NCBI GenBank assembly: GCA_035647075.1
Contig: DASROF010000173.1
Location: 14,721 to 78,720 of the forward strand
Source: Vicinamibacterales bacterium
GTDB lineage: Bacteria; Acidobacteriota; Vicinamibacteria; Vicinamibacterales; UBA2999
DNA: 64,000 nucleotides
Direction: 5' to 3'
Below the pieces are notes generated by a model. The model was not told the origin of the DNA and searched no databases. It saw only the letters and a program-made list of their open reading frames with translations. Of this stretch, positions 24,100 to 41,204 are shown one piece after another. Both the position numbers and the translations under genes were made by a program. Numbering within the stretch: the first letter of the stretch is position 1; every line of letters begins with the position of its first letter.

Positions 24100-25434
24100 A
24101 TGCTGGTTGGCTGGCCGTCTCCATTGACGGTCACCCTTCCAGTGCCGCCGATATCGACCCGTATCCCGCTCGGGCGCGCGTATATGCTCGCGTCGGGCGC
24201 CATGCGCGAAGCAGAGCGCGTCGGTCTTCCGGCGCGCTCAATCACTCCAATCGGCGGCTTGCGCCGGTACGCGCCCGCGATCAGTGATGTCTCGCTCCTC
24301 GCGGTGGCGCCGACATCGGACCATCCAGAACTGCTGACCCGGTTCGCCCGGCTTCCCGCCGTCGCGGCTATCCTCTCGCGTTCACTGTCCCACGTGACCA
24401 TCGCCAATGAGCGTGGAGCCATCACCTTACACGTGGCCGTACCTGAAGAGGCCGGATCCGCGCTGGTGTGGCACACCGGGTCGCTTGCACACACAACCCA
24501 GCTGCAGGCGCGTGCGCAGCGGATGGGCTTCGCGTTTGAAAGCGGACGTCTCCTTGATCGCCATGGCCAGCCGATGATCACCGAAACCGAGGAGCGCTTC
24601 TACGAGCACCTCGGCTTGCCGGGCATCGCACCAGAGCTACGGGAGGGCATGGACGAGATTGCGGCCGCAGAACGTGGCGACCTGCCGGGCCTGGTCAGCG
24701 CGTCGGACATCCGCGGCGATCTCCACATGCACAGCACGTGGAGCGACGGGCGGGACACCATCGATCAGATGGCCTTCGCCAGCCTACGACTCGGGTACGA
24801 GTACGTGGCAATTACCGACCACTCAGAGCGGTCGCTGGCTTCGCGGCAACTGGCAGCGAAGGACATCGCCCGCCAGCGCGCGGACATCGGCAAGGTGCAG
24901 TCGCGAGTGAAGCGGCTGGAAATTCTTCACGGCATCGAGGTCGATATCATGCCGGACGGGTCGCTCGACTTCGATGACGAACAATTGGCCGGGTTCGACA
25001 TCGTTCTGGCCTCGCTGCACGATCATGCCGGACACGACGGGGCGATGCTCACGGAACGATACCTGCGCGCGATTCGGCATCCGCTGGTCAATGTGATTAC
25101 GCATCCGGCCAACCGCACGCCCGCGCGGTCCGAGGGTTACAACGTGAACTTCGACGTGCTGTTCGCGGCCGCGGCGGAAACGGGCACGGCCATGGAGGTG
25201 GACGGCGCTCCAGGGCACCTCGATTTGGATGGAACGCTCGCGCGACGCGCGGTTGCCGCTGGTGTGACGCTGGTGATTGACAGCGACTGCCATCGCTCCG
25301 ACGGGCTGGCCAGACAGATGCGATTCGGTGTTGGTACGGCCAGGAGGGGATGGATCGAGCCGGCCCACGTCCTGAACACCCGCGGCCTCGAGGAAGTGCG
25401 CTCGTTCATCGCAAGGAAACGTGCGCGGAAATAA
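24100..25434 (+). CDS. PolX-derived PHP-domain phosphoesterase with a truncated, catalytically degenerate polymerase core
   Basis: The C-terminal PHP motifs are intact (DLHMHSTWSDG, ITDHS, GIEVDI, SLHD, ITHP, DSDCH). The N-terminal roughly 190 aa align with the PolX palm and thumb, but GDIDIL is replaced by SDVSLL, and the 8-kDa and fingers domains are missing. Confidence 0.75.
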   Translation: MLVGWPSPLTVTLPVPPISTRIPLGRAYMLASGAMREAERVGLPARSITPIGGLRRYAPAISDVSLLAVAPTSDHPELLTRFARLPAVAAILSRSLSHVTIANERGAITLHVAVPEEAGSALVWHTGSLAHTTQLQARAQRMGFAFESGRLLDRHGQPMITETEERFYEHLGLPGIAPELREGMDEIAAAERGDLPGLVSASDIRGDLHMHSTWSDGRDTIDQMAFASLRLGYEYVAITDHSERSLASRQLAAKDIARQRADIGKVQSRVKRLEILHGIEVDIMPDGSLDFDDEQLAGFDIVLASLHDHAGHDGAMLTERYLRAIRHPLVNVITHPANRTPARSEGYNVNFDVLFAAAAETGTAMEVDGAPGHLDLDGTLARRAVAAGVTLVIDSDCHRSDGLARQMRFGVGTARRGWIEPAHVLNTRGLEEVRSFIARKRARK

Positions 25435-29823: not shown

Positions 29824-31083
29824 CTACTCGACCTTGGCGACCTGCGCGCCCAGCGAGACCAGCCGTTGCACGACGTTGCTGTAGCCGCGCTCGACGGTCT
29901 CGAGCGGCGCGACGCGGGTTTGGCCCTCCGCCGCAAGACCGGCCGCAATCAACGACATCCCGGATCGCAGGTCGCGACTGTCCAGGATTCGCCCTCCGCG
30001 CAGACGCGTCGGCCCTGTGACGATGATGCGATGGGCATCGGCAAGGAACATATCAGCGCCCATGCCGCTCATCTGCTCGAGTGCGAAAAGCCGCAGCTCG
30101 TACATCCAGTCGTGGACGAGCGTTCGGCCTACTGACTGCGTGGCCAATACCGTCACCAGGCTGACGAGGTCACTCGGAAAGGCCGGCCACAACCCGGTCG
30201 TGATTCGACGGACCGCGCGTGGCTTCGACGGCTTCACCGTGAACACGCCATCGCGCATCCCGCACTCGACGTTCATCCGCTTCAGCACCGACGCGACGAC
30301 TTCGATGTCCTCGTCGCGGGCGCCTTCGATGGCGATCTCTCCGCCGGTAATGGCCGCAACGACCGCCCAGCTGCCCGCTTCAATGTAGTCGCCACCAAGG
30401 CATTGCTGTGCGCCCGCGAGCTTGCCGACCCCTTGGACGCGCAGCCTGGAACTGCCGATGCCCGACACTTCGGCGCCCATCTTCGTGAGGAACTCACACA
30501 GTTCGACCACGTGCGGCTCTGTCGCCGCATTGCGGATTTCGGTCAGCCCCACCGCTGACGCCGCCGCCAGCAGCACGGTCTCTGTCCCGGTCACCGACGC
30601 CTCTTCCAGGTACATCGACGCCGATTTCAGGCCATCCGGAGCGTGCAGAGCGTGGTCAGGCCCGCCGTCGTCGTGCGCGCCCATCGCCAGCAACGCCTCG
30701 ATGTGTGTGGAAATCGTACGGCGTGCCGGAAAATCTCCGCCGGGCGGGGCGATGTGAGCCCTGCCGGTCCGCGCCAGCAGCGGGCCGAGCAGAAGCACTG
30801 AGCCGCGTAGACGGCCGACAAGTGAGCGGTCGGGCACGTGCGTGCGAATAGACGGCGTCCGGACACGCAGCGTCGTGGTGCCAATGCCTTCGACCTCGGC
30901 GCCGATGTCCAGCAGCAGGCGCGCCATCACCTCGACATCGCCGATTCGCGGGACGTTCGTGAGGACACATTCCTGGTCCGTCAGCAGACACGCCGCGAGC
31001 AACGGGAGCGCGGCGTTCTTGTTGCCCTCGACGGACACGCGGCCTTCCAGCCGGTGGCCGCCTTCGATCAGAAGACTCGACAT
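29824..31083 (-). CDS. murA: UDP-N-acetylglucosamine 1-carboxyvinyltransferase
   Basis: 419 aa starting MSSLLIEGGHRLEGRVSVEGNKNAALPLLAACLL, with MurA-like sequence throughout. Confidence 0.95.
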   Translation of the reverse strand: MSSLLIEGGHRLEGRVSVEGNKNAALPLLAACLLTDQECVLTNVPRIGDVEVMARLLLDIGAEVEGIGTTTLRVRTPSIRTHVPDRSLVGRLRGSVLLLGPLLARTGRAHIAPPGGDFPARRTISTHIEALLAMGAHDDGGPDHALHAPDGLKSASMYLEEASVTGTETVLLAAASAVGLTEIRNAATEPHVVELCEFLTKMGAEVSGIGSSRLRVQGVGKLAGAQQCLGGDYIEAGSWAVVAAITGGEIAIEGARDEDIEVVASVLKRMNVECGMRDGVFTVKPSKPRAVRRITTGLWPAFPSDLVSLVTVLATQSVGRTLVHDWMYELRLFALEQMSGMGADMFLADAHRIIVTGPTRLRGGRILDSRDLRSGMSLIAAGLAAEGQTRVAPLETVERGYSNVVQRLVSLGAQVAKVE

Positions 31084-31114
31084 CGTCGCACCTTCGCCGT
31101 CCGTTCACACACGT

Positions 31115-31139
31115 CCCGGTTCTCGCTTCCGGGTTCGTG
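31115..31139 (-). promoter_or_regulatory. 25-nt motif CACGAACCCGGAAGCGAGAACCGGG (gene orientation) 31 nt upstream of the murA ATG; near-identical copy upstream of nagZ
   Basis: Compare 37330-37354, which reads CACGAACCCGGAACTGAGAACCCGG 32 nt upstream of the nagZ GTG, in the same orientation relative to the gene. Confidence 0.45.
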
Positions 31140-31175
31140 TTCTTCGTTTTGCTACAACGTTCAGTATTAGGGGTT

Positions 31176-32252
31176 CTACGACTGCAGAAACTCAAGATCA
31201 TCGTCGCGGCCAAAGCCGACGAATACCGGCTCGGGCCGGAGACTGATGCCAAATCGATCCAGCACGCCGCGCTTGATTCGCGTTGCAAATCTCAGCACAT
31301 CACGTGCTGTTGCGCCACCACGATTGATCAGCGCCAGTGTATGTTTGCTCGAAATCCCGACCGCTCCATCCACTTCGCCGCGACGAAAGCCCGAACGCTC
31401 GATCAGCCATGCGGCCGGCAGCTTGACTCGACCGGAGTCGACCGGAAACGCTGGCGGCGGGCCGTCTGCGGCTGCGGCCACTCGGTCATGCTCGTGTCCG
31501 TCGACGATCGGGTTCATGAAGAACGATCCGACGCTGCGCGTATCCGGATCGTTCTCGTCCAGCACCATGCCCTTCCGACGGCGGACCGCAAGCACGGCGT
31601 CGCGTACGTCGGCCACGCCCGGAGACGTCGCACCTCGACGAGACAAATAGTCCACGACGTCCGGATACGTGGTCGTGGGCGCCGAGGCCCGCAATCGAAA
31701 CGTCACGTCACAGACGACGAAGCGGCCGGCGTCGGACTTCTTGAAGCGGCTCGTCCGATACGCAAACCCGCAGTCGGCACCCGTCAGGATGTCCATCGCA
31801 CGTGTCTGGCGGTCGTACACCGTCAGTCGATGGATGCTCCCGGCCACCTCCTGGCCGTATGCGCCGACGTTTTGAATCGGTGTCCCACCCACGGTGCCCG
31901 GAATCCCCGACAGACACTCGAGGCCCGCCAGGCCACGATCAACGCATTCCGCGACCGTCGCATCCCACACCTCACCCGCTCCGGCCGTCACGAGGCTGTC
32001 ATCTTCATCCGTCACGTATCTCCGGCCACCGATGTCGAGATGCAGGACCAGACCATCGAATCCCGTGTCGGCAATCACCAGATTGCTGCCGCCGCCCAGC
32101 ACGAACAGCGAAACACCCCGGTCCTCACTCCACCGATGGGCGCGCTGCACATCGTCGACGCTCCTGGCTGTCAGCAGCCACCGGGCCGCGCCGCCGATTC
32201 GCAGAGTGGTAAAGGCGGCCAGCGGCACTGCAGAACGAACAGCCGCGGGCAC
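31176..32252 (-). CDS. murB: UDP-N-acetylenolpyruvoylglucosamine reductase
   Basis: FAD-binding block PLAAFTTLRIGGAARWLL..VLGGGSNLV. I prefer GTG 32252, one nt after the upstream TAA. The track extension to 32372 overlaps the upstream gene. Confidence 0.85.
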   Translation of the reverse strand: MPAAVRSAVPLAAFTTLRIGGAARWLLTARSVDDVQRAHRWSEDRGVSLFVLGGGSNLVIADTGFDGLVLHLDIGGRRYVTDEDDSLVTAGAGEVWDATVAECVDRGLAGLECLSGIPGTVGGTPIQNVGAYGQEVAGSIHRLTVYDRQTRAMDILTGADCGFAYRTSRFKKSDAGRFVVCDVTFRLRASAPTTTYPDVVDYLSRRGATSPGVADVRDAVLAVRRRKGMVLDENDPDTRSVGSFFMNPIVDGHEHDRVAAAADGPPPAFPVDSGRVKLPAAWLIERSGFRRGEVDGAVGISSKHTLALINRGGATARDVLRFATRIKRGVLDRFGISLRPEPVFVGFGRDDDLEFLQS

Positions 32253-32253
32253 A

Positions 32254-33882
32254 TTACTCGAATGCAAGGAGCCTGGCTTCCTGTGCAACAAGCGCCGACA
32301 GCGCCTCGCCACGTGAACATACCCGAAACTCAATCCAGTCGCCGGGTGCCAACTGCGCAACAAGCGGGACATCGGCGGAGATCACGACGGCCAGTTGTGG
32401 ATAACCTCCCGTCGTCTGACGGTCGGCCATCAAGAGGATCGGCTCGCCCGACGATGGCACCTGAATGGCGCCCACGAACGCGGCGTCGGAAATCATCTCG
32501 TGATCTGCGAGGCGGGGAATCTGGCCGCCTTGCAGGCGGTATCCCATCCGACTCGACTGTGACGAGACGATGAAGCGAGTTCGCTCGAGGGCATCCAGCG
32601 CCTCTGGCGGAAAGTGCTCGATCTGCGGCCCGGGGATAACACGCACTCGCGCCCCGCCGCCACGAACGTACGCGGTCGCCTCTGGTGTTGGCCGACGTCG
32701 CCCAACGACCGGTCCCGAACCGCCAAGGCCAAGTCGATCGCCCTGCATGAGCGCACGACCATTCCATCCACCCATCCGCGTCAGCACATGGGTGGACCGG
32801 CTTTCGAGCACACGAGGCACGTCGATCCCACCGTCCATCGCCACATAGGCCCTGGCCCCGAACACACGGTTCGCGAAACGAAGCACGCCTCCCGCCGGGC
32901 AGGCCACCGCTGCGCAGTGCGGCACGCGTGCGCCGTCAAGAGTGGCGCCCAGATCGGCACCGGCAACGGCGAATGTGGTTCGCTGTTCAAAGCGCAGTTT
33001 CGGCCCGGCCAGCGTGGCTTCGAGGACCGCCGCGCCAGGCGCATTGCCGACGAGCGCGTTCGCAGTCCGGTACGCGACCCAATCCATCGCGCCGCACACT
33101 GGCACGCCGCTCGACTGATGGCCCCAGCGACCGCTGTCCTGCACGGTTGTCAACAGTCCCGGGTCGATGATGCTGATCGACCGCGCGGCCGTTACCGACT
33201 GCGCCCCGGGCCGCACGCTGGCGATGTCGGGGCCTACCCCGTGCGGCTCCGCGCGGAATCGCACGGAATCACCAGGCGCGAGTAAAGCGGCGGGCCATTG
33301 TGTCGCGTCGAACATCCGCGTGCTCGTGTGGCCGATGATCTGCCATCCGCCGGGAGAATCGGAGGGGTACACCGCCGTCTGGCCCCCAGCGATGCCAACC
33401 GATCCGGCGCGAACCCGTTGACGGGGAGACGCCTTCCTCGGCGCCGCGATCGATGGATCCACGGTTCCAAGATAGGCAAAGCCAGGAAGGAAGCCGAGCA
33501 TGAATACCCGGTACGAGCGATCGCCATGTCGATTGATCACGTCCTCGCTGCTCAACCCGCCGAACGCAGCAACCTCAGGCAGGTCCGGTCCCCACTGTCC
33601 TCCGTACTCGACCGGAATCTCGATTGATCGTCCTTCGACCGGCGAGATAGTCGCTGCAGAGGCGCGCTCGAGGCTCGCGTGCACGTCGCGAATATCTGTC
33701 ACGAGTGGATCGAAATAGATCGCGACAGACCGGTACGTCGAGACAACGTCGCGGACACCCGGTATCACGTCGTCGCGCACCGCGGCGGCGATGGCAATAG
33801 CGCGGGCATTGACCTGATCGTCGATGACCGGCTCAAGTTCCAGCAACACCGCCGAGTCGCCGGCTTCCTTAATCGCCGACAC
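32254..33882 (-). CDS. Fused 5-oxoprolinase subunit B/C homolog (KipI-KipA, allophanate hydrolase subunit 1+2 fusion)
   Basis: The N-terminal half is KipI/PxpB-like (IKEAGDSAVLLELE.., GFLPGFAYLG). The C-terminal half is KipA/PxpC-like (ISIIDPGLLTTVQDSGRWG.., TTGGYPQLAVVI). I prefer GTG 33882; ATG 33960 is an alternative. Confidence 0.8.
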   Translation of the reverse strand: MSAIKEAGDSAVLLELEPVIDDQVNARAIAIAAAVRDDVIPGVRDVVSTYRSVAIYFDPLVTDIRDVHASLERASAATISPVEGRSIEIPVEYGGQWGPDLPEVAAFGGLSSEDVINRHGDRSYRVFMLGFLPGFAYLGTVDPSIAAPRKASPRQRVRAGSVGIAGGQTAVYPSDSPGGWQIIGHTSTRMFDATQWPAALLAPGDSVRFRAEPHGVGPDIASVRPGAQSVTAARSISIIDPGLLTTVQDSGRWGHQSSGVPVCGAMDWVAYRTANALVGNAPGAAVLEATLAGPKLRFEQRTTFAVAGADLGATLDGARVPHCAAVACPAGGVLRFANRVFGARAYVAMDGGIDVPRVLESRSTHVLTRMGGWNGRALMQGDRLGLGGSGPVVGRRRPTPEATAYVRGGGARVRVIPGPQIEHFPPEALDALERTRFIVSSQSSRMGYRLQGGQIPRLADHEMISDAAFVGAIQVPSSGEPILLMADRQTTGGYPQLAVVISADVPLVAQLAPGDWIEFRVCSRGEALSALVAQEARLLAFE

Positions 33883-35308
33883 GGTCCTGGAGCGCCCGGA
33901 GCAGCGTCCGATGAATGCCGCCGAACCCACCGTTGGACATGAGCACGACGACATCCCCATCGCGATGCTCGCGCACGATGGTCGAGACGATGTCCTCGTT
34001 ATTCGGAAGGTGGCGCGCCCGCTTCCCCTGCGCTCGCAGATCCGATACGAGCCGATCGCTATCCAGACGATCAGCTTCCGGCAGAGACGACCGGAACACT
34101 GCGGCAAGAATCACTTCGTCCGCGGCAGCAAACGCCGCCGCAAAAGCATCCTGGAACACACGGCGGCACGACGACGCGGAGCGTGGCTCGAAGACGGCCC
34201 AGATGCGTCGATCCGGATATCCGTTCCTCAGCGCCGAGAGCGTCTCATAGACCGCCGTCGGGTGATGCGCGAAGTCGTCAAGGATCGTAACTCCGCGCGC
34301 CACTCCCACGATTTCGAGGCGACGCTTGATGCCCTGGAACAGGCGCAGGCCGTCGGCAAGCTGGTCCGGCCCCATGCCTGCCCTCGCGCCAACCGCGATC
34401 GCAGCCAGCGCATTGCGAACGTTGTGGACGCCGAGCAGAGGTGACTCGAAGGTACCATACGGTTCGCCGTGACGCCGAACGTCGAATCGCGTCTGGCCAT
34501 CGCGCGTGCGGAGATCGTGCGCCTGCCAGGTGACGCCATCAGCCAACCCGAACGTTTCGACCGGGCTGACGGCTGTGGCTTCCAGCGCTGCGGCATCAGG
34601 GCTGTCCGCACCAAGCAGCAGCAATCCCGTACGCGGGACGAGATTGGCCAGCCGCCGGAAGGCAAGGCGGACCTCGTCGAGATTGGCGTAGATATCCGCG
34701 TGGTCGAACTCGATGTTGTTGATGATCGCGATATCGGGCAGGTACTTGAGGAACTTCGCCGTCTTGTCGAAGAACGCGCTGTCGTACTCGTCGCCCTCGA
34801 TGACGAAATGTCGCCCCGACCCGACGCGATAGCTCGATCCGCCAGCACCAAAGTTCAATGCGATGCCGCCGACGAGCACGGTCGGATCGAGCTTGCCGTG
34901 TGTCAACAGCCAGGCGGTGAGCGACGTCGTGGTCGTCTTGCCGTGCGTTCCGGCTACAACGACCGACTCGGCGCCCCACAGAAACTGGTCGCGAATGACT
35001 TCGGGCAGCGAGCAGTACCGAATCTTCCGTTCCAGCACCGCTTCGAGCTCAGGATTCCCGCGCGAGATCGCGTTGCCGACAACCACCAGGTCCAGATCGG
35101 CCGTAATGTGTGCGGCGTCATAGCCGCTGAACGTATGAATGTGCTCGGCCGCCAGGAAGTCGCTCATCGGCGGATAGACGTTCTGATCCGATCCGCGAAC
35201 GTCATGACCGCGGCTCTTCAACAGCGCCGCCAGCGTCGCCATGGCGGTTCCACACACGCCGATCAGATAGATCCGCTGACGATCAGCCAACGGCGGCTTC
35301 CTCGACAA
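33869..35308 (-). CDS. mpl: UDP-N-acetylmuramate:L-alanyl-gamma-D-glutamyl-meso-diaminopimelate ligase
   Basis: RIYLIGVCGTAMATLAALLKSRGHDVRGSDQNVYPPMSDFL is the Mpl N-terminal signature, and a Mur ligase middle domain contains GTHGKTTTT. Confidence 0.85.
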   Translation of the reverse strand: MSRKPPLADRQRIYLIGVCGTAMATLAALLKSRGHDVRGSDQNVYPPMSDFLAAEHIHTFSGYDAAHITADLDLVVVGNAISRGNPELEAVLERKIRYCSLPEVIRDQFLWGAESVVVAGTHGKTTTTSLTAWLLTHGKLDPTVLVGGIALNFGAGGSSYRVGSGRHFVIEGDEYDSAFFDKTAKFLKYLPDIAIINNIEFDHADIYANLDEVRLAFRRLANLVPRTGLLLLGADSPDAAALEATAVSPVETFGLADGVTWQAHDLRTRDGQTRFDVRRHGEPYGTFESPLLGVHNVRNALAAIAVGARAGMGPDQLADGLRLFQGIKRRLEIVGVARGVTILDDFAHHPTAVYETLSALRNGYPDRRIWAVFEPRSASSCRRVFQDAFAAAFAAADEVILAAVFRSSLPEADRLDSDRLVSDLRAQGKRARHLPNNEDIVSTIVREHRDGDVVVLMSNGGFGGIHRTLLRALQDRVGD

Positions 35309-36212
35309 GAAGCGATGGACGCGGATGTGTCGTCAGGCGCACGGCGACGCCGAGCGGCAGGGTCCAGCATGGTCCGGAGGTGTGCCCTGAGGGGAATCCG
35401 TAAACAACCGGACCGTGAAAGCCCTTCGTGAGCCGCTGAATCACGGCGCGTGCCGTCACTGCACCACCGGGCTCGTCGCACGATCGCATTTCCCCGAACA
35501 CCAGGCCTGAGGCGCGCTCGAGCACCCCGCTCAGGCGCAGCTGGGTCAGCATGCGGTCGATGCGATACGGTCGCTCGCCCACGTCCTCGATGAAGAGAAT
35601 CGACCGCGCTGGAGGGTCGAAGGCGTACGGCGTGCCCAGCGACGACACCAGGGTTGTCAGGGTCCCACCATGCAGAGGTCCAACTGTCTCGCCGGATTGA
35701 AGAACCACAAGACCGTCGGGGGCCAGGCTGATCCCTGCTCCGCCGCTGGCCAGTGCCATGAACGAGGCTTCGTCGTACCCCGCCGACCCACGTGAGAGCC
35801 GTCGATCCAGCATCGGACCATGGAGGGCGGTAATCGCACACTGACAGGTCAACCACGACAGGATCGACGTGTTATCGCTGTAGCCGATGAACAGCTTGGG
35901 TGTGGCGCAGATCACGTCCCGATCCAGGAACGGCACCACGTGGACGCTGCCGTACCCTCCCCGCGTCGCAATCAGCGCGCGGACATCCGGATCGCGCCAG
36001 TAGCGCAGGAAAGCACCGGCGCGCGATTCAGCGGTGCCTGCCAGATACCCGGCCTCACGCGCAAATACGGTCTCGTCGTAGACGGGAACAAACCCGAGCC
36101 GGCGCAGCTCCGCAACACCAGCGTCGAACTCCTCTCGAGCGAAAGCGCTTGCCGGCGACACGACGGCGATCCGGTCGCCGCGTTTCAGGGCGGGTGGGAG
36201 ACGGCGGCTCAC
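35283..36212 (-). CDS. ldcA: Muramoyltetrapeptide LD-carboxypeptidase (S66)
   Basis: LKRGDRIAVVSPAS.., nucleophile block FIGYSDNTS, and GFPSGH at the C terminus. The GTG start 36212 overlaps the nagZ TGA (GTGA). Confidence 0.8.
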   Translation of the reverse strand: MSRRLPPALKRGDRIAVVSPASAFAREEFDAGVAELRRLGFVPVYDETVFAREAGYLAGTAESRAGAFLRYWRDPDVRALIATRGGYGSVHVVPFLDRDVICATPKLFIGYSDNTSILSWLTCQCAITALHGPMLDRRLSRGSAGYDEASFMALASGGAGISLAPDGLVVLQSGETVGPLHGGTLTTLVSSLGTPYAFDPPARSILFIEDVGERPYRIDRMLTQLRLSGVLERASGLVFGEMRSCDEPGGAVTARAVIQRLTKGFHGPVVYGFPSGHTSGPCWTLPLGVAVRLTTHPRPSLLVEEAAVG

Positions 36213-37297
36213 AGGAAGCGGGACATCTCCTCCGCGATGCGCTGATGCGCATCGCAGCCCAGCACGTGCTGCAGCCGCGGCGCGCGCCCCGTTCCGACCG
36301 GCGCGGCGAGAAACCGTTCTTTCGCCTGCCGCAGACGCTTCAGCGCGTCTTCGATCCGCTTGTACGGGATGCGGCCCTGCTCGACGGCATGGACCAACGC
36401 TTCGAGCGTCACTGCTTGCACTTCTACATCGCCGCTGCAAATCAGTAAGGCATCACAGCCGGCGCCGATGGCCTGAACCGCCGCTTCTGGAACGGAGTAC
36501 GACGCCGCGATCGCCTTCATCTCGAGATCGTCGCTCAGGATCACCCCCGCGTAGCCGAGCTCGTCCCGCAAGATGCCCTGCACGATCTTCGGTGACAGCG
36601 TGGCGGGCCTCTCTTCGTCCAGGGACGGAACGAGCACGTGCGCGGTCATGATGAACGCCACGTCCGCTTTGATGGCGTCGCGGAACGGAACGCACTCAAC
36701 CCGCCGAATGCGGTCGGGTGGATGCTCAACGAGCGGCAACTCCAGATGTGAATCCACCGAGGTGTCGCCATGCCCGGGGAAATGCTTGCCGCATGCCGCC
36801 ACACCGTGTTCCTGCAGGCCGCGGACGATGGCCACGCCAAGGCGTCCGACAAGGTCCGCAGTGTCCGCGAGCGCACGATCGCCAATGACTGGATTCTTGG
36901 GATTGGTGTGGATGTCGAGGACCGGGGCGTAGTCGAGCGTGATGCCCACTGCCCGCAATTCCGCAGCGAGCGCGGCGGCGAAGCGCGAGGCCAGCTCGAC
37001 GCTCCCACTTCGTCCCAGCACCGCCATCGGCGGCCATTCGGTAAACGGCTTTCGCAGCCGGGCAACGCGGCCTCCTTCCTGGTCTACGCCCACCCACAGT
37101 GGCAGCTCCGCCGCGAGCGCCTGGAGGTCGATCGAGAGCTCGGCTACCTGGTCAGGGGCCTCGATATTGCGCGCGAAGATGGTCACGCCGCCGAGTGAGA
37201 ACTCGCGTGCGAGCGAACGAATTTCGGGTGAGAGAACGGGACCAGCGAGACTTCCGATCAGCAGTTGACCGATCTCGTGGCGGATGGCCGAAGGCAC
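36209..37297 (-). CDS. nagZ: Beta-N-acetylhexosaminidase NagZ (GH3)
   Basis: VDQEGGRV, the GH3 signature KHFPGHGDTSVDSH, and ILSDDLEM. GTG start at 37297. Confidence 0.9.
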   Translation of the reverse strand: MPSAIRHEIGQLLIGSLAGPVLSPEIRSLAREFSLGGVTIFARNIEAPDQVAELSIDLQALAAELPLWVGVDQEGGRVARLRKPFTEWPPMAVLGRSGSVELASRFAAALAAELRAVGITLDYAPVLDIHTNPKNPVIGDRALADTADLVGRLGVAIVRGLQEHGVAACGKHFPGHGDTSVDSHLELPLVEHPPDRIRRVECVPFRDAIKADVAFIMTAHVLVPSLDEERPATLSPKIVQGILRDELGYAGVILSDDLEMKAIAASYSVPEAAVQAIGAGCDALLICSGDVEVQAVTLEALVHAVEQGRIPYKRIEDALKRLRQAKERFLAAPVGTGRAPRLQHVLGCDAHQRIAEEMSRFL

Positions 37298-37303
37298 GAA
37301 GAC

Positions 37304-37423
37304 ATTATAGAGAACCGCTGTTCAGTCTTCCGGGTTCTCAGTTCCGGGTTCGTGCTCCTGGTTGGTGTTCGGGGTTCGGGGTTTCGGGGTTCCTGGTTCG
37401 GCCGAACAGCGGGGTTCTATAAT
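37304..37423. promoter_or_regulatory. Divergent nagZ / GHMP-kinase control region: 20-nt inverted repeat with embedded -10 boxes, flanking a GGGGTTC-type heptamer array
   Basis: The left arm ATTATAGAGAACCGCTGTTC (37304-37323) and right arm GAACAGCGGGGTTCTATAAT (37404-37423) match 17 of 20 as reverse complements. TATAAT on the - strand ends 6 nt before the nagZ GTG. TATAAT on the + strand ends 8 nt before the kinase GTG. Heptamers lie at 37359-37399. Confidence 0.5.
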
Positions 37424-37431
37424 GCGTCCCC

Positions 37432-38421
37432 GTGACTATCGCGACCTCTGCCCCGACACGGATCGATCTCGCGGGGGGCACGATCGACATCTGGCCTCTC
37501 TACCTTTTCCACCCTGGGGCCCAGACCCTCAATGCGGCGATCAGTCTTCGCGCGACGGTGCGCCTTTCCACCCGATCAGACGACCTGATCGTCATCCAGT
37601 CGGAGGATACGTCCACCACGGTCGAGGCGGGACGCTGGCAGGACCTCCGGTCTGAGCGCAAGCTCCGGCTGCTCTCCCTGCTCGTGTACTTCTTCGAAGG
37701 ACACGGCATCACGCTGACGACCAACAGCGCATCGCCGGCGGGGGCGGGCATCGCAGGATCCTCAGCAATGAACGTCGCCGTCTGCGCGGCACTGGCAGAT
37801 TGGCGGCGAATCCATTACGAGCCGGAGGCGCTGCTGCAAATCGCCATGAACGTCGAGGCCCAGGCGATCAATGTGCCGACTGGACTGCAGGACTACCGGC
37901 CGGCCCTCTATGGTGGGATTGCGGCCCTCGAGCTCGAAGTGGACGGCGTACGGCGGGTGCCCCTTGACGTTGACCTGAAGGAACTCCAACGCCGGATCGT
38001 TCTCTGCTACACGGGTGAGCCACGGAATTCCGGAACAAACAATTGGGACATCACGAAGAAGCACATCGACGGCGACCCTCACATCTTCGACTGCTTCGAG
38101 CGCATCCGGGACACGGCTGCGACAATGCGGACGGCGCTGACGCGTGACGACTGGGATGGCGTGGGAACCGCTATCGCCGACGAGTGGGAAAACAGAAAGA
38201 GACTGTCGCCGGGGGTGACCACCCCGGGCATCGAGCGGCTGATCACCCGCGCGGCTCAGGCTGGCGCGACGGCGGCAAAAGTATGCGGCGCCGGGGGCGG
38301 CGGCTGTCTGTTCTGCTATGGCCCTCCCGACCGTCGGGCCGACATCGCTGAGGCGCTTGGCGCCGGCGGCGCCACGATCCTGGATTACTCGTTCGAGCAG
38401 CACGGGCTGCTGCGTGGATAA
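37432..38421 (+). CDS. GHMP-family sugar kinase (HddA/fucokinase-like, COG2605-type)
   Basis: APTRIDLAGGTIDIWPLY.., GHMP motif SPAGAGIAGSSAMNVAV, and C-terminal KVCGAGGGGCLFCY. Confidence 0.8.
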   Translation: MTIATSAPTRIDLAGGTIDIWPLYLFHPGAQTLNAAISLRATVRLSTRSDDLIVIQSEDTSTTVEAGRWQDLRSERKLRLLSLLVYFFEGHGITLTTNSASPAGAGIAGSSAMNVAVCAALADWRRIHYEPEALLQIAMNVEAQAINVPTGLQDYRPALYGGIAALELEVDGVRRVPLDVDLKELQRRIVLCYTGEPRNSGTNNWDITKKHIDGDPHIFDCFERIRDTAATMRTALTRDDWDGVGTAIADEWENRKRLSPGVTTPGIERLITRAAQAGATAAKVCGAGGGGCLFCYGPPDRRADIAEALGAGGATILDYSFEQHGLLRG

Positions 38422-40147
38422 CCGGGCCATCGCTCAGGTACTCGGTGAGATCGCCGATCTGCTGGAAATCAAGAACGAGAACGGCTTCAAGATCCGGGCA
38501 TATCGATCAGCGAGTGAGACAATCGCCGCCTACCCGGACGCGATTGCCCGCCTCGACGACAAACAGCTTCGCGACATTCCTGGTATCGGCAAGGATCTCG
38601 CCGCCCGCGTCCGCGAGCTCGCGGAGACAGGCACATCCGCCTACCATCGAGAGCTCCTCGAGCAGTTCCCGCAGACAATCCTCGACCTTCTCCGACTGCA
38701 GGGTGTCGGGCCGAAGACAGTTGCCCTTCTCTACTCGGCGCTGAACATCAGCTCGGTTGACGCTCTGGCAGCTGCAGCCCGTGACGGCAGACTCCGGTCG
38801 CTGAAAGGCATGGGCCCGAAAAAGGAAGCACTGATCCTGAAAGCGATCGAGGAACGTGAGAAGGATGCCGGCCGTCATCGGCTCGCTGACACAGCCACGG
38901 TATCCGCAGCGCTCGTCGAGTATCTGCACGAGCGAGCGCCCACGGTTGAATTCATTCCTGTTGGCAGCGTCCGCCGTGGATGCGATACCTGCGGCGATAT
39001 CGACATTCTCGCCGTCGGTGGCGACCCGACCGTGATGGACCTGCTCCTGCAGCATCCGGGCGTCGAGCGCGTCCTCGGCCACGGTGAGACGAAATCCAGT
39101 ATTCGGCTGCAAGGCGGTTATCAGGCCGACCTGCGTCTCGTGCCGGTCGAGAGCCGCGGCGCCGCCATGCAGTACTTCACCGGCTCCAAGGCTCATAACA
39201 TCGTCATTCGCGACCGCGCGGTTCAACGTGGTCTCAAGCTCAACGAGTACGGACTCTTCGACCTGGATGGCGACCGCCTCATCGCAGGCGAGTCGGAAGA
39301 AGGGGTTTACGAAGCGCTCGATCTCGCCTGGATCGAGCCGGAACTGCGCGAAAATCACGGCGAAATCGAAGCGGCCCGTCAGCGTCGCCTTCCCCGCCTG
39401 GTGACGCTCGCCGACCTGCGCGGCGACCTCCACATGCACACGACCGCGACCGATGGCCGCGACGATCTCGAGACCATGGCCGCGGCGGCGCAGACACGAG
39501 GCCACGAGTACATTGCGATCACCGATCACAGCAAGGCGATGGCGATGTCGAACGGACTGGATGAGCGTCGTGTGCTGGAGCATGCGGCCCGTGTCCGTGC
39601 GCTGAACGGCCGTTACGAGGGGCTCACCTTGCTTGCGGGTGTGGAATGCGACATCCTCGCCGACGGTACCCTTGACCTCGCGCACGACTGCCTGGCCCAG
39701 TTGGACTGGGTGGTCGCATCCGTGCATTCTCATTTCGGTCAGGAAGAAACGCAGATGACCGATCGGCTGATGCGCGCGATTGAGTGTCCCTGGGTGGATG
39801 TACTCGGCCATCCAACCGGCCGCCTCCTGCTGAAACGCGAGCCTGCACGCGTCAACATGGACGTCCTCACGACCGCGGCTGCCGGTCTGGGCGTCGCGCT
39901 CGAGATCAACGCGCAGGACGCGCGACTCGACCTCTGCGACTCGCACGCACGGCTGGCGCGAGAGCGCGGTGTGCGGCTTGTGATCTCGACCGACGCGCAC
40001 TCGGTGAACGCCTTGAACAACCTCCAATGGGGCGTCACTGTCGCACGCCGGGCGTGGGCCTCACCGGACGATGTGCTCAACACGCGCAGCCTGCCCTCCC
40101 TGCGTGACGCACTGCGGAGAACTCGGCACGCCGGTGGGAGCGCGTAA
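38414..40147 (+). CDS. polX: DNA polymerase/3'-5' exonuclease PolX (full length)
   Basis: HhH N terminus (NRAIAQVLGEIADLLEIKNENGFKIRAYR), palm with catalytic GDIDIL, and a PHP domain (DLHMHTTATDG, ITDHS..). The GTG 38414 start overlaps the kinase stop by 8 nt. Confidence 0.85.
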   Translation: MDNRAIAQVLGEIADLLEIKNENGFKIRAYRSASETIAAYPDAIARLDDKQLRDIPGIGKDLAARVRELAETGTSAYHRELLEQFPQTILDLLRLQGVGPKTVALLYSALNISSVDALAAAARDGRLRSLKGMGPKKEALILKAIEEREKDAGRHRLADTATVSAALVEYLHERAPTVEFIPVGSVRRGCDTCGDIDILAVGGDPTVMDLLLQHPGVERVLGHGETKSSIRLQGGYQADLRLVPVESRGAAMQYFTGSKAHNIVIRDRAVQRGLKLNEYGLFDLDGDRLIAGESEEGVYEALDLAWIEPELRENHGEIEAARQRRLPRLVTLADLRGDLHMHTTATDGRDDLETMAAAAQTRGHEYIAITDHSKAMAMSNGLDERRVLEHAARVRALNGRYEGLTLLAGVECDILADGTLDLAHDCLAQLDWVVASVHSHFGQEETQMTDRLMRAIECPWVDVLGHPTGRLLLKREPARVNMDVLTTAAAGLGVALEINAQDARLDLCDSHARLARERGVRLVISTDAHSVNALNNLQWGVTVARRAWASPDDVLNTRSLPSLRDALRRTRHAGGSA

Positions 40148-40439: not shown

Positions 40440-41204
40440 CTATTTGTTCAGCACGATCTTCTGTCGCGCGGTGACCCGGAGCACCTCCGGCACGTTCCGA
40501 TCGGTCGAGATCGCCCGCAGATCCTTATCCGTCAGCCTGGCTAGCAGGTTCATCGAGATCGCCACCGGCGTCTTCGGATTGCGCGCCAGTGCGACGACGA
40601 TGCCGTAACGCTTCATCCAGGCCCGCGTAGTGGCAATCATGCGGAGAATCTCCTCCGCGATGCTTCCCATCTTGGCGATGCTCTCGATCTCGGGCTCCGT
40701 CATCTTCGGGCTGCTCAACACCGCCACCGACACGAGCTTGTTCGGATCGCGAATCAGGATCGCGCGCTCCTCGCGCGACCCTTTCATGGCCAGACCGACT
40801 CTCTGCGCCACGGTCAACCCCGCGATGCGCTGGAGGGTCGACTTCTGGTCCTCGTTCTCCTGTGTCTGCGGCTCTGGTGCCGTGTCAACCAGCGGCGCGT
40901 CGCCATCCGGCGCGGCCGTCGCAGCGCGCGATACGCCGCGGGCCTCGAAAAACGCCGCTACGTCCGCGGGAACATCACTGCGCGCCAGGAACGCAGAGAG
41001 CGTCTCCGCCGGAATCGACTGCAGCGTTGCCTCTGCCGCCGCCGCTACGCCAGGATCAGCGTCCTTGACGAGCAATATCAGAAGTTCCATCTGCTCGTGC
41101 GCGCGTGGCGCGAGTACGCCCTGAGCCGCCAGGAGGCGCAGATCGACCGGCGCCTCGCCCCGGCGGAACACGTCGAGCAACGGCGTCTTGAACGCATTCT
41201 CCAT
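40440..41204 (-). CDS. Hypothetical HEAT/ARM-like helical repeat protein
   Basis: 254 aa. Helical repeats flank an acidic linker. The C-terminal half reads LTVAQRVGLAMKGSREERAILIRDPNKLVSVAVLSSPKMTEPEIESIAKM..NPKTP. No assigned function that I know of. Confidence 0.6.
   Translation of the reverse strand: MENAFKTPLLDVFRRGEAPVDLRLLAAQGVLAPRAHEQMELLILLVKDADPGVAAAAEATLQSIPAETLSAFLARSDVPADVAAFFEARGVSRAATAAPDGDAPLVDTAPEPQTQENEDQKSTLQRIAGLTVAQRVGLAMKGSREERAILIRDPNKLVSVAVLSSPKMTEPEIESIAKMGSIAEEILRMIATTRAWMKRYGIVVALARNPKTPVAISMNLLARLTDKDLRAISTDRNVPEVLRVTARQKIVLNK

Follow-up and report, generated by a model that had tools for sequence, protein, structure and literature searches.

A PxpB-PxpC fusion gene within a conserved cell-wall operon of Vicinamibacteria

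In the cytosolic part of muropeptide recycling, NagZ and an LD-carboxypeptidase trim imported muropeptides down to L-Ala-gamma-D-Glu-meso-diaminopimelate (L-Ala-gamma-D-Glu-mDAP), and Mpl joins this recycled peptide to UDP-N-acetylmuramic acid (UDP-MurNAc), the acceptor made by MurA and MurB. In Escherichia coli the genes nagZ, ldcA and mpl are scattered over the genome. The present analysis concerns 64,000 nucleotides (nt) of contig DASROF010000173.1 from a Vicinamibacterales bacterium (assembly GCA_035647075.1), hereafter the window, where these recycling genes, murB and murA form a putative operon together with a gene encoding a fusion of PxpB and PxpC.

PxpB and PxpC are thought to phosphorylate 5-oxoproline in an ATP-dependent manner and PxpA to open the ring (PMC13274462). 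Other roles have been described for proteins of the same family: inhibition of a KinA-type sporulation histidine kinase for KipI/KipA of Bacillus subtilis; and, for the pair MSMEG_0435/0436 of Mycobacterium smegmatis, a role outside 5-oxoprolinase in which the biotinylated biotin carboxyl carrier protein (BCCP) of acyl-CoA carboxylase is sequestered, tied to cell-envelope precursor supply (10.1101/2025.10.28.685139).

The operon described here is class-wide in Vicinamibacteria, conserved and previously undescribed, and is built from known parts: every protein in it is a member of a well-known family and the novelty is in the architecture. In the searchable literature nothing was found on this architecture, and no paper connects oxoprolinase to Vicinamibacteria or peptidoglycan recycling to pxp genes.

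A class-wide operon in Vicinamibacteria

The operon comprises six genes on one strand. An earlier note, made from the letters of this stretch, had proposed these six genes with their overlaps and spacers, and all of them were confirmed exactly at the stated coordinates. The features are, from the first gene to the last:

36209-37297, minus strand: nagZ, beta-N-acetylhexosaminidase (glycoside hydrolase family 3, GH3), GTG start, 362 amino acids (aa)
35283-36212, minus strand: ldcA-like LD-carboxypeptidase (peptidase S66), GTG start, 309 aa
33869-35308, minus strand: mpl, UDP-MurNAc:L-Ala-gamma-D-Glu-mDAP ligase, TTG start, 479 aa
32254-33882, minus strand: pxpB-pxpC fusion, GTG start, 542 aa
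33256-33873, minus strand: PxpB (KipI-like, CT_C_D) domain of the fusion, residues 4-209, from alignment to the KipI C-domain, YbgJ and PH0987
32278-33177, minus strand: PxpC (KipA-like, CT_A_B) domain of the fusion, residues 236-535, from alignment to YbgK residues 2-295
31176-32252, minus strand: murB, long PRK13903-type, GTG start, 358 aa
31084-31175, minus strand: murB-murA spacer, 92 nt, with one copy of GAACCCGGAA as read from the sequence
29824-31083, minus strand: murA, UDP-N-acetylglucosamine (UDP-GlcNAc) 1-carboxyvinyltransferase, 419 aa

The identities of all six members are confirmed in Pfam and NCBIfam. NagZ matches Glyco_hydro_3 (7.2e-86) and NF003740 (254 bits, cutoff 207), MurB matches NF010478 (399 bits, cutoff 231) and MurA matches both TIGR01072 (397.5 bits, cutoff 392.7) and NF006873 (419 bits, also over cutoff). 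Mpl scores 406 bits with TIGR01081 (cutoff 388.7); the MurC model gives 318 on this protein, under its own cutoff. The LdcA protein contains the N- and C-terminal domains of Peptidase_S66 (1.9e-30 and 2.9e-31) and scores 111 with the NCBIfam equivalog, below the cutoff of 378.

To place the operon, one genome per species was scanned for relatives of pxpB/pxpC, and the 80 loci obtained (numbered with the prefix L) were sorted by tblastn with the six window proteins and E. coli PxpA. The proteins closest to the fusion were from Vicinamibacterales metagenome bins. Twenty-two loci, called the Vicinamibacteria loci below, bear the label Vicinamibacteria, Vicinamibacterales or Acidobacteriota, apart from two that are oddly labelled. 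The order nagZ-ldcA-mpl-pxpB/C-murB-murA was identified in all 22, as far as the contigs reach. The other 58 loci belong to other Acidobacteriota classes, Bacillota, Bacteroidota, Chloroflexota, Proteobacteria, Planctomycetota and Spirochaetota, and tblastn placed mur genes beside pxpB/C in none of them. The earlier note had guessed an Acidobacteriota origin, rightly, as the closest homologues and the linked loci are from Vicinamibacteria. It had also said that its idea would fail if the fusion were randomly placed in related genomes; with 22 of 22 loci against 0 of 58, the linkage to mpl/murB is not random. The shared order is one retained event and not 22 independent ones. Two loci with the Vicinamibacteria-type operon are labelled Bifidobacteriaceae (L021) and Candidatus Sulfopaludibacter (L005); these labels look wrong, probably through mis-binning, and the NagZ, Mpl and MurA of both loci are 65-82% identical to those of the window.

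The junctions between the genes are close. The nagZ stop and the ldcA start overlap by 4 nt, the ldcA GTG lying within GTGA. The overlap of ldcA and mpl is 26 nt, and the same overlap was identified in all seven loci of the fused subclade (defined below) that hold the junction. The gene mpl and the fusion overlap by 14 nt with the GTG start at 33882; this start gives 542 aa, in keeping with the homologues, whose lengths cluster at 540-545 aa. A single nucleotide separates the fusion TAA from the murB GTG, a junction kept in seven of the eight fused-subclade loci, and the gap from murB to murA is 92 nt. Tight or overlapping junctions recur in nearly all of the 22 loci, and this tightness is stronger evidence for a common transcript than the conserved position.

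A candidate promoter precedes the first gene:

37304-37309, minus strand: TATAAT box, its end 7 nt before the GTG of nagZ

Of 18 Vicinamibacteria loci examined, most have a TATAAT-like box at a comparably short distance before the nagZ start (L002, L003, L005-L008, L021, L059, L062, L070 and L079 among them). Because the box sits so near the start codon, a leaderless mRNA is suggested, and the operon transcript is probably leaderless, beginning at nagZ. A generic two-hexamer scan gave no full sigma-70 promoter, and a generic scan for terminator-like hairpins gave no excess over shuffled sequence. The putative transcription unit would bring together the recycling of muropeptides, the synthesis of UDP-MurNAc and two of the three parts of a 5-oxoprolinase, in an architecture that is stable throughout this class, whose members are abundant in soil but have been little studied.

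The earlier note had taken the fused state of pxpB and pxpC as meaningful, a view that does not hold. Fused or split status was called from the ends of the open reading frames (ORFs). True fusions were identified in the window and in eight linked loci out of the 22 (L002-L007, L029 and L062), all in one subclade. The remaining 14 contain pxpB and pxpC as separate, adjacent genes in the same slot, and fused pxpBC genes adjoining pxpA are found in many other phyla. The fusion is incidental and not a conserved feature of the linkage. The type of murB differs between the two groups. In the split subclade (L008, L053, L067) it is short, PRK13905-type, of about 292 aa, and is separated from pxpC by about 30 nt; in the fused subclade (window, L003, L007) it is long, PRK13903-type, of about 358 aa, and begins 1 nt after the fusion. 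Since identity between the types is only about 29% and they occupy the same position, one murB was exchanged for another in this slot at about the time when pxpB and pxpC fused.

The fusion protein and the location of PxpA

The fusion has the appearance of an ordinary enzyme, and nothing in its sequence suggests a new activity. The search for CT_C_D and CT_A_B proposed in the earlier note found both domains (7.5e-70 and 2.4e-90); the residues between them, 210-235, form a linker that is poorly conserved and variable in the alignment of homologues. Identity to the E. coli proteins is 44% for the PxpB half and 43% for the PxpC half, and the matches in the PDB are the fused TTHA0988 (3OEP, 1.6e-68) and YbgJ/YbgK (5DUD). 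The PxpB half passes the TIGR00370 equivalog (196 bits, cutoff 145.55) and the PxpC half passes the TIGR00724 domain model (286, cutoff 230). With the NF045499 equivalog the PxpC half scores 267, below the cutoff of 500; PxpA-linked homologues of other phyla score 208-260 with this model, and among those tested only E. coli passes (592). The urea carboxylase model TIGR02712 gives 220 bits, far short of its cutoff (1304). This identity was rejected: the 542-aa protein contains CT_C_D and CT_A_B only and has no biotin carboxylase or BCCP domains. An AlphaFold2 model of the fusion, built on a 13-sequence alignment, was too poor for use (mean predicted local distance difference test score 62, predicted template modelling score 0.42).

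In an alignment of 71 sequences the mur-linked clade is monophyletic and its stem branch is no longer than its neighbours. The family-conserved set consists of the 69 positions that reach 90% conservation or more among the other homologues, which are mostly PxpA-linked. The mur-linked clade reaches the same level at 63 of these and mostly retains the remaining six, and the window fusion keeps 67, deviating at P48S and G170A. As this conservation is retained, the module most likely keeps the activation of 5-oxoproline. The undescribed step or regulator of muropeptide reuse put forward in the earlier note is not supported by the sequence, with 67 of 69 conserved residues kept and a closer relation to E. 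coli PxpB/PxpC than to the mycobacterial pair.

PxpA was not identified in the window. The best tblastn E-value with E. coli PxpA was 0.8, and a LamB_YcsF hidden Markov model (HMM) built from 41 PxpA sequences gave no match at E<=10 among six-frame ORFs of at least 40 aa; here the earlier note was correct. A protein search with a Thermoanaerobaculaceae PxpA gave no Vicinamibacteria-named match in the best 120 listed, almost none of which carry organism names; two matches on long contigs are ordinary pxpB-pxpC-pxpA operons of other lineages. The 254-aa ORF at 40440-41204 (minus strand), of PxpA-like size, was considered as a hidden PxpA and rejected: it reads as a helical-repeat protein. It has no Pfam, NCBIfam or PDB match and is conserved in 13 related loci.

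The favoured explanation, held with moderate confidence, is that the fusion is an orthodox 5-oxoprolinase B-C module that is co-transcribed with cell-wall genes and has its partner PxpA encoded elsewhere. One transcript would start leaderless at nagZ and be read through the translationally coupled junctions. NagZ, the LdcA-like LD-carboxypeptidase and Mpl would then be co-expressed with MurA, MurB and the PxpB-C module. MurA and MurB would supply UDP-MurNAc, so that recycled peptide and UDP-GlcNAc end up as UDP-MurNAc-tripeptide. The fusion would covalently join the PxpB-PxpC heterodimer, which is assembled from two chains in other bacteria. This module would activate its presumed substrate, 5-oxoproline, with ATP and hand it to a PxpA presumably encoded outside the region, and glutamate would be regenerated. 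The salvage of glutamate would in this way share a promoter with the synthesis of cell-wall precursors, a coupling whose physiological side is likewise presumed. The co-expression of pxpBC with cell-wall genes may be adaptive or may be a frozen accident. If PxpA is simply elsewhere, the locus is a tidy case of operon reshuffling with little wider consequence.

Several points weigh against the orthodox module with a distant PxpA. By tblastn and the PxpA HMM, pxpA lies within 10 kb in none of the 22 Vicinamibacteria loci. The other 58 loci contain it on the stretch examined in 46 cases, usually adjoining pxpC, and these account for all 46 matches of the HMM across the 80 loci. A three-subunit enzyme that is split in this way loses stoichiometric co-expression. 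The pxpBC slot also persisted through the fusion and the switch of murB type, which hints at selection on the arrangement. In favour of the orthodox module, the separation of pxpA from pxpBC is not unique to the mur-linked clade, since pxpA is 2-9 kb from pxpBC in L015, L043 and L046 and was not identified within 10 kb in L039 and L066, all of other lineages.

An arrangement that is embedded class-wide between mpl and murB with translational coupling, that outlasted both the fusion event and the change of murB, and that has no pxpA nearby in 23 genomes (the 22 loci within 10 kb and the 64-kb window) would also fit a cell-wall-specific enzyme independent of PxpA. The B-C module, alone or with another partner, would use ATP on a D-glutamate-derived lactam or a gamma-linked by-product of the stem peptide; this is judged unlikely. 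D-glutamate or tripeptide would be returned to the Mur pathway, and one candidate substrate would be 5-oxo-D-proline from gamma-D-Glu-mDAP. The stronger form, in which Vicinamibacteria have no PxpA at all and PxpB-PxpC, retained between mpl and murB throughout the history of the class, is a dedicated ATP-using cell-wall enzyme reopening such a lactam (e.g. 5-oxo-D-proline) or a dead-end product of the stem peptide, is improbable to a similar degree. No change of specificity is visible in the mur-linked clade, with only eight clade-specific positions, and we know of no biochemical precedent for PxpB/C as a productive enzyme without PxpA. The argument from linkage is further weakened by regional synteny. 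Synteny across the class extends over about 25 kb surrounding the operon, unrelated housekeeping genes included (GHMP kinase, PolX, the 254-aa ORF, thiamine-phosphate synthase, RNase HII, TrmD, LolA and a TMEM260-like glycosyltransferase); because these unrelated genes are syntenic too, the mpl-pxpBC-murB linkage is weak evidence of a joint function or pathway.

The PxpA-independent enzyme also draws on the linkage of pxpBC to a gene of the D-glutamate cyclase family (PF07286) in other lineages. D-glutamate is essentially a peptidoglycan amino acid, and Pxp modules may connect with its chemistry because PF07286 is linked to pxpBC there. However, neither PF07286 nor a gamma-glutamylcyclotransferase-like gene was identified in the window or in related loci. 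If the module does work without PxpA, the locus would point to an unknown ATP-dependent step tying glutamate or D-glutamate chemistry to cell-wall turnover, and orphan PxpB/C proteins would gain a second, non-oxoprolinase function. A dedicated cell-wall enzyme would add an undescribed step of repair or salvage to peptidoglycan recycling.

Copies of the PF07286 gene were identified in L071, L009, L011, L013, L016, L043, L064, L077 and L081, and L057 ends in a partial copy. In eight Bacillota loci it is downstream of pxpC, and in no fewer than six of these it precedes pxpA. The Treponema copy (L071, 11688-12515) directly follows pxpBC and has no pxpA within 10 kb. No description of a linkage between pxp and this gene was found in the searchable literature.

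Flanking genes and intergenic repeats

The gene upstream of nagZ is transcribed away from it:

37432-38421, plus strand: GHMP-family sugar kinase, divergent from nagZ, with GHMP_kinases_N and _C

This kinase is found upstream of nagZ in 18 Vicinamibacteria loci. Its best NCBIfam match is the HddA-type heptose-7-phosphate kinase, with a score of 134 against a cutoff of 600, and fucokinase is also far below cutoff. A role in amino-sugar salvage is conceivable from its family and position.

Two PolX-like ORFs, both on the plus strand and conserved in related loci, were also identified. The one at 38318-40147 is full length (609 aa, with DNA_pol_B thumb and PHP domain). The other, at 24100-25434 (444 aa), contains thumb and PHP and is without matches to the N-terminal helix-hairpin-helix and palm.

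The motif GAACCC(C/G)GAA is present in five copies within about 70 nt of the divergent intergenic region between nagZ and the GHMP kinase (37328-37399, minus strand) and in one copy in the murB-murA spacer (31127-31136, minus strand). Allowing at most one mismatch, the window contains 11 matches, with 4.2 expected. The motif was seen in only two related loci; it may serve as a binding site for a regulator, or may just be a simple repeat.

Comparison with known systems

The pair MSMEG_0435/0436 (3MML, 9YX5) resembles the fusion in being a pair of PxpC and PxpB homologues. A regulatory protein binder is suggested by this pair and by KipI/KipA: the fusion would act by binding some other protein, perhaps a Mur enzyme, and modulating it. 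Its PxpB half matches the KipI C-domain (2ZP2, 3.6e-39), and non-enzymatic protein-binding roles are described in the family (10.1101/2025.10.28.685139 and the KipI literature). The fusion is, however, much closer to the enzymatic PxpB/C than to the mycobacterial pair, with 212 bits to YbgK and 152 bits to YbgJ; the mycobacterial proteins give about 108 bits per domain, about half the YbgJ/YbgK score. According to a reading of the alignment, about 10 of the 63 positions that both groups conserve are different in this pair (Y124W, L132A, Q168F, T169S, D205M, Q248E, G279A, M446V, T490V and F519L), and the alignments give the fusion no sequence signature of the BCCP-binding pair. Neither a biotin enzyme nor a sporulation kinase was identified among the neighbouring genes scanned, and the Kip proteins of Clostridioides difficile act as oxoprolinase and not as sporulation regulators. 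A regulatory binder is therefore very improbable, and the closer similarity to the enzymatic homologues makes it the least likely of the readings considered.

The fused protein TTHA0988 of Thermus thermophilus (3OEP) shares the B-C architecture of the fusion and aligns with it over residues 20-519. It is more divergent at conserved motifs such as the QTTGGY region.

The E. coli system PxpABC (YbgJ/YbgK/YbgL, with 5DUD as the B-C complex) is similar in both domains, in the order B then C and in most of the family-conserved residues. It differs in that B and C are one polypeptide in the window, with no pxpA adjoining or elsewhere in the window, and in that the E. coli genes form a pxpBCA operon whereas the window gene lies within a cell-wall operon.

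The recycling pathway of gammaproteobacteria (NagZ, LdcA and Mpl, with AmpG, AmpD and AnmK) is similar at the family level in NagZ, LdcA and Mpl. The window differs in joining nagZ, ldcA and mpl with murB, murA and the additional pxpBC in one operon.

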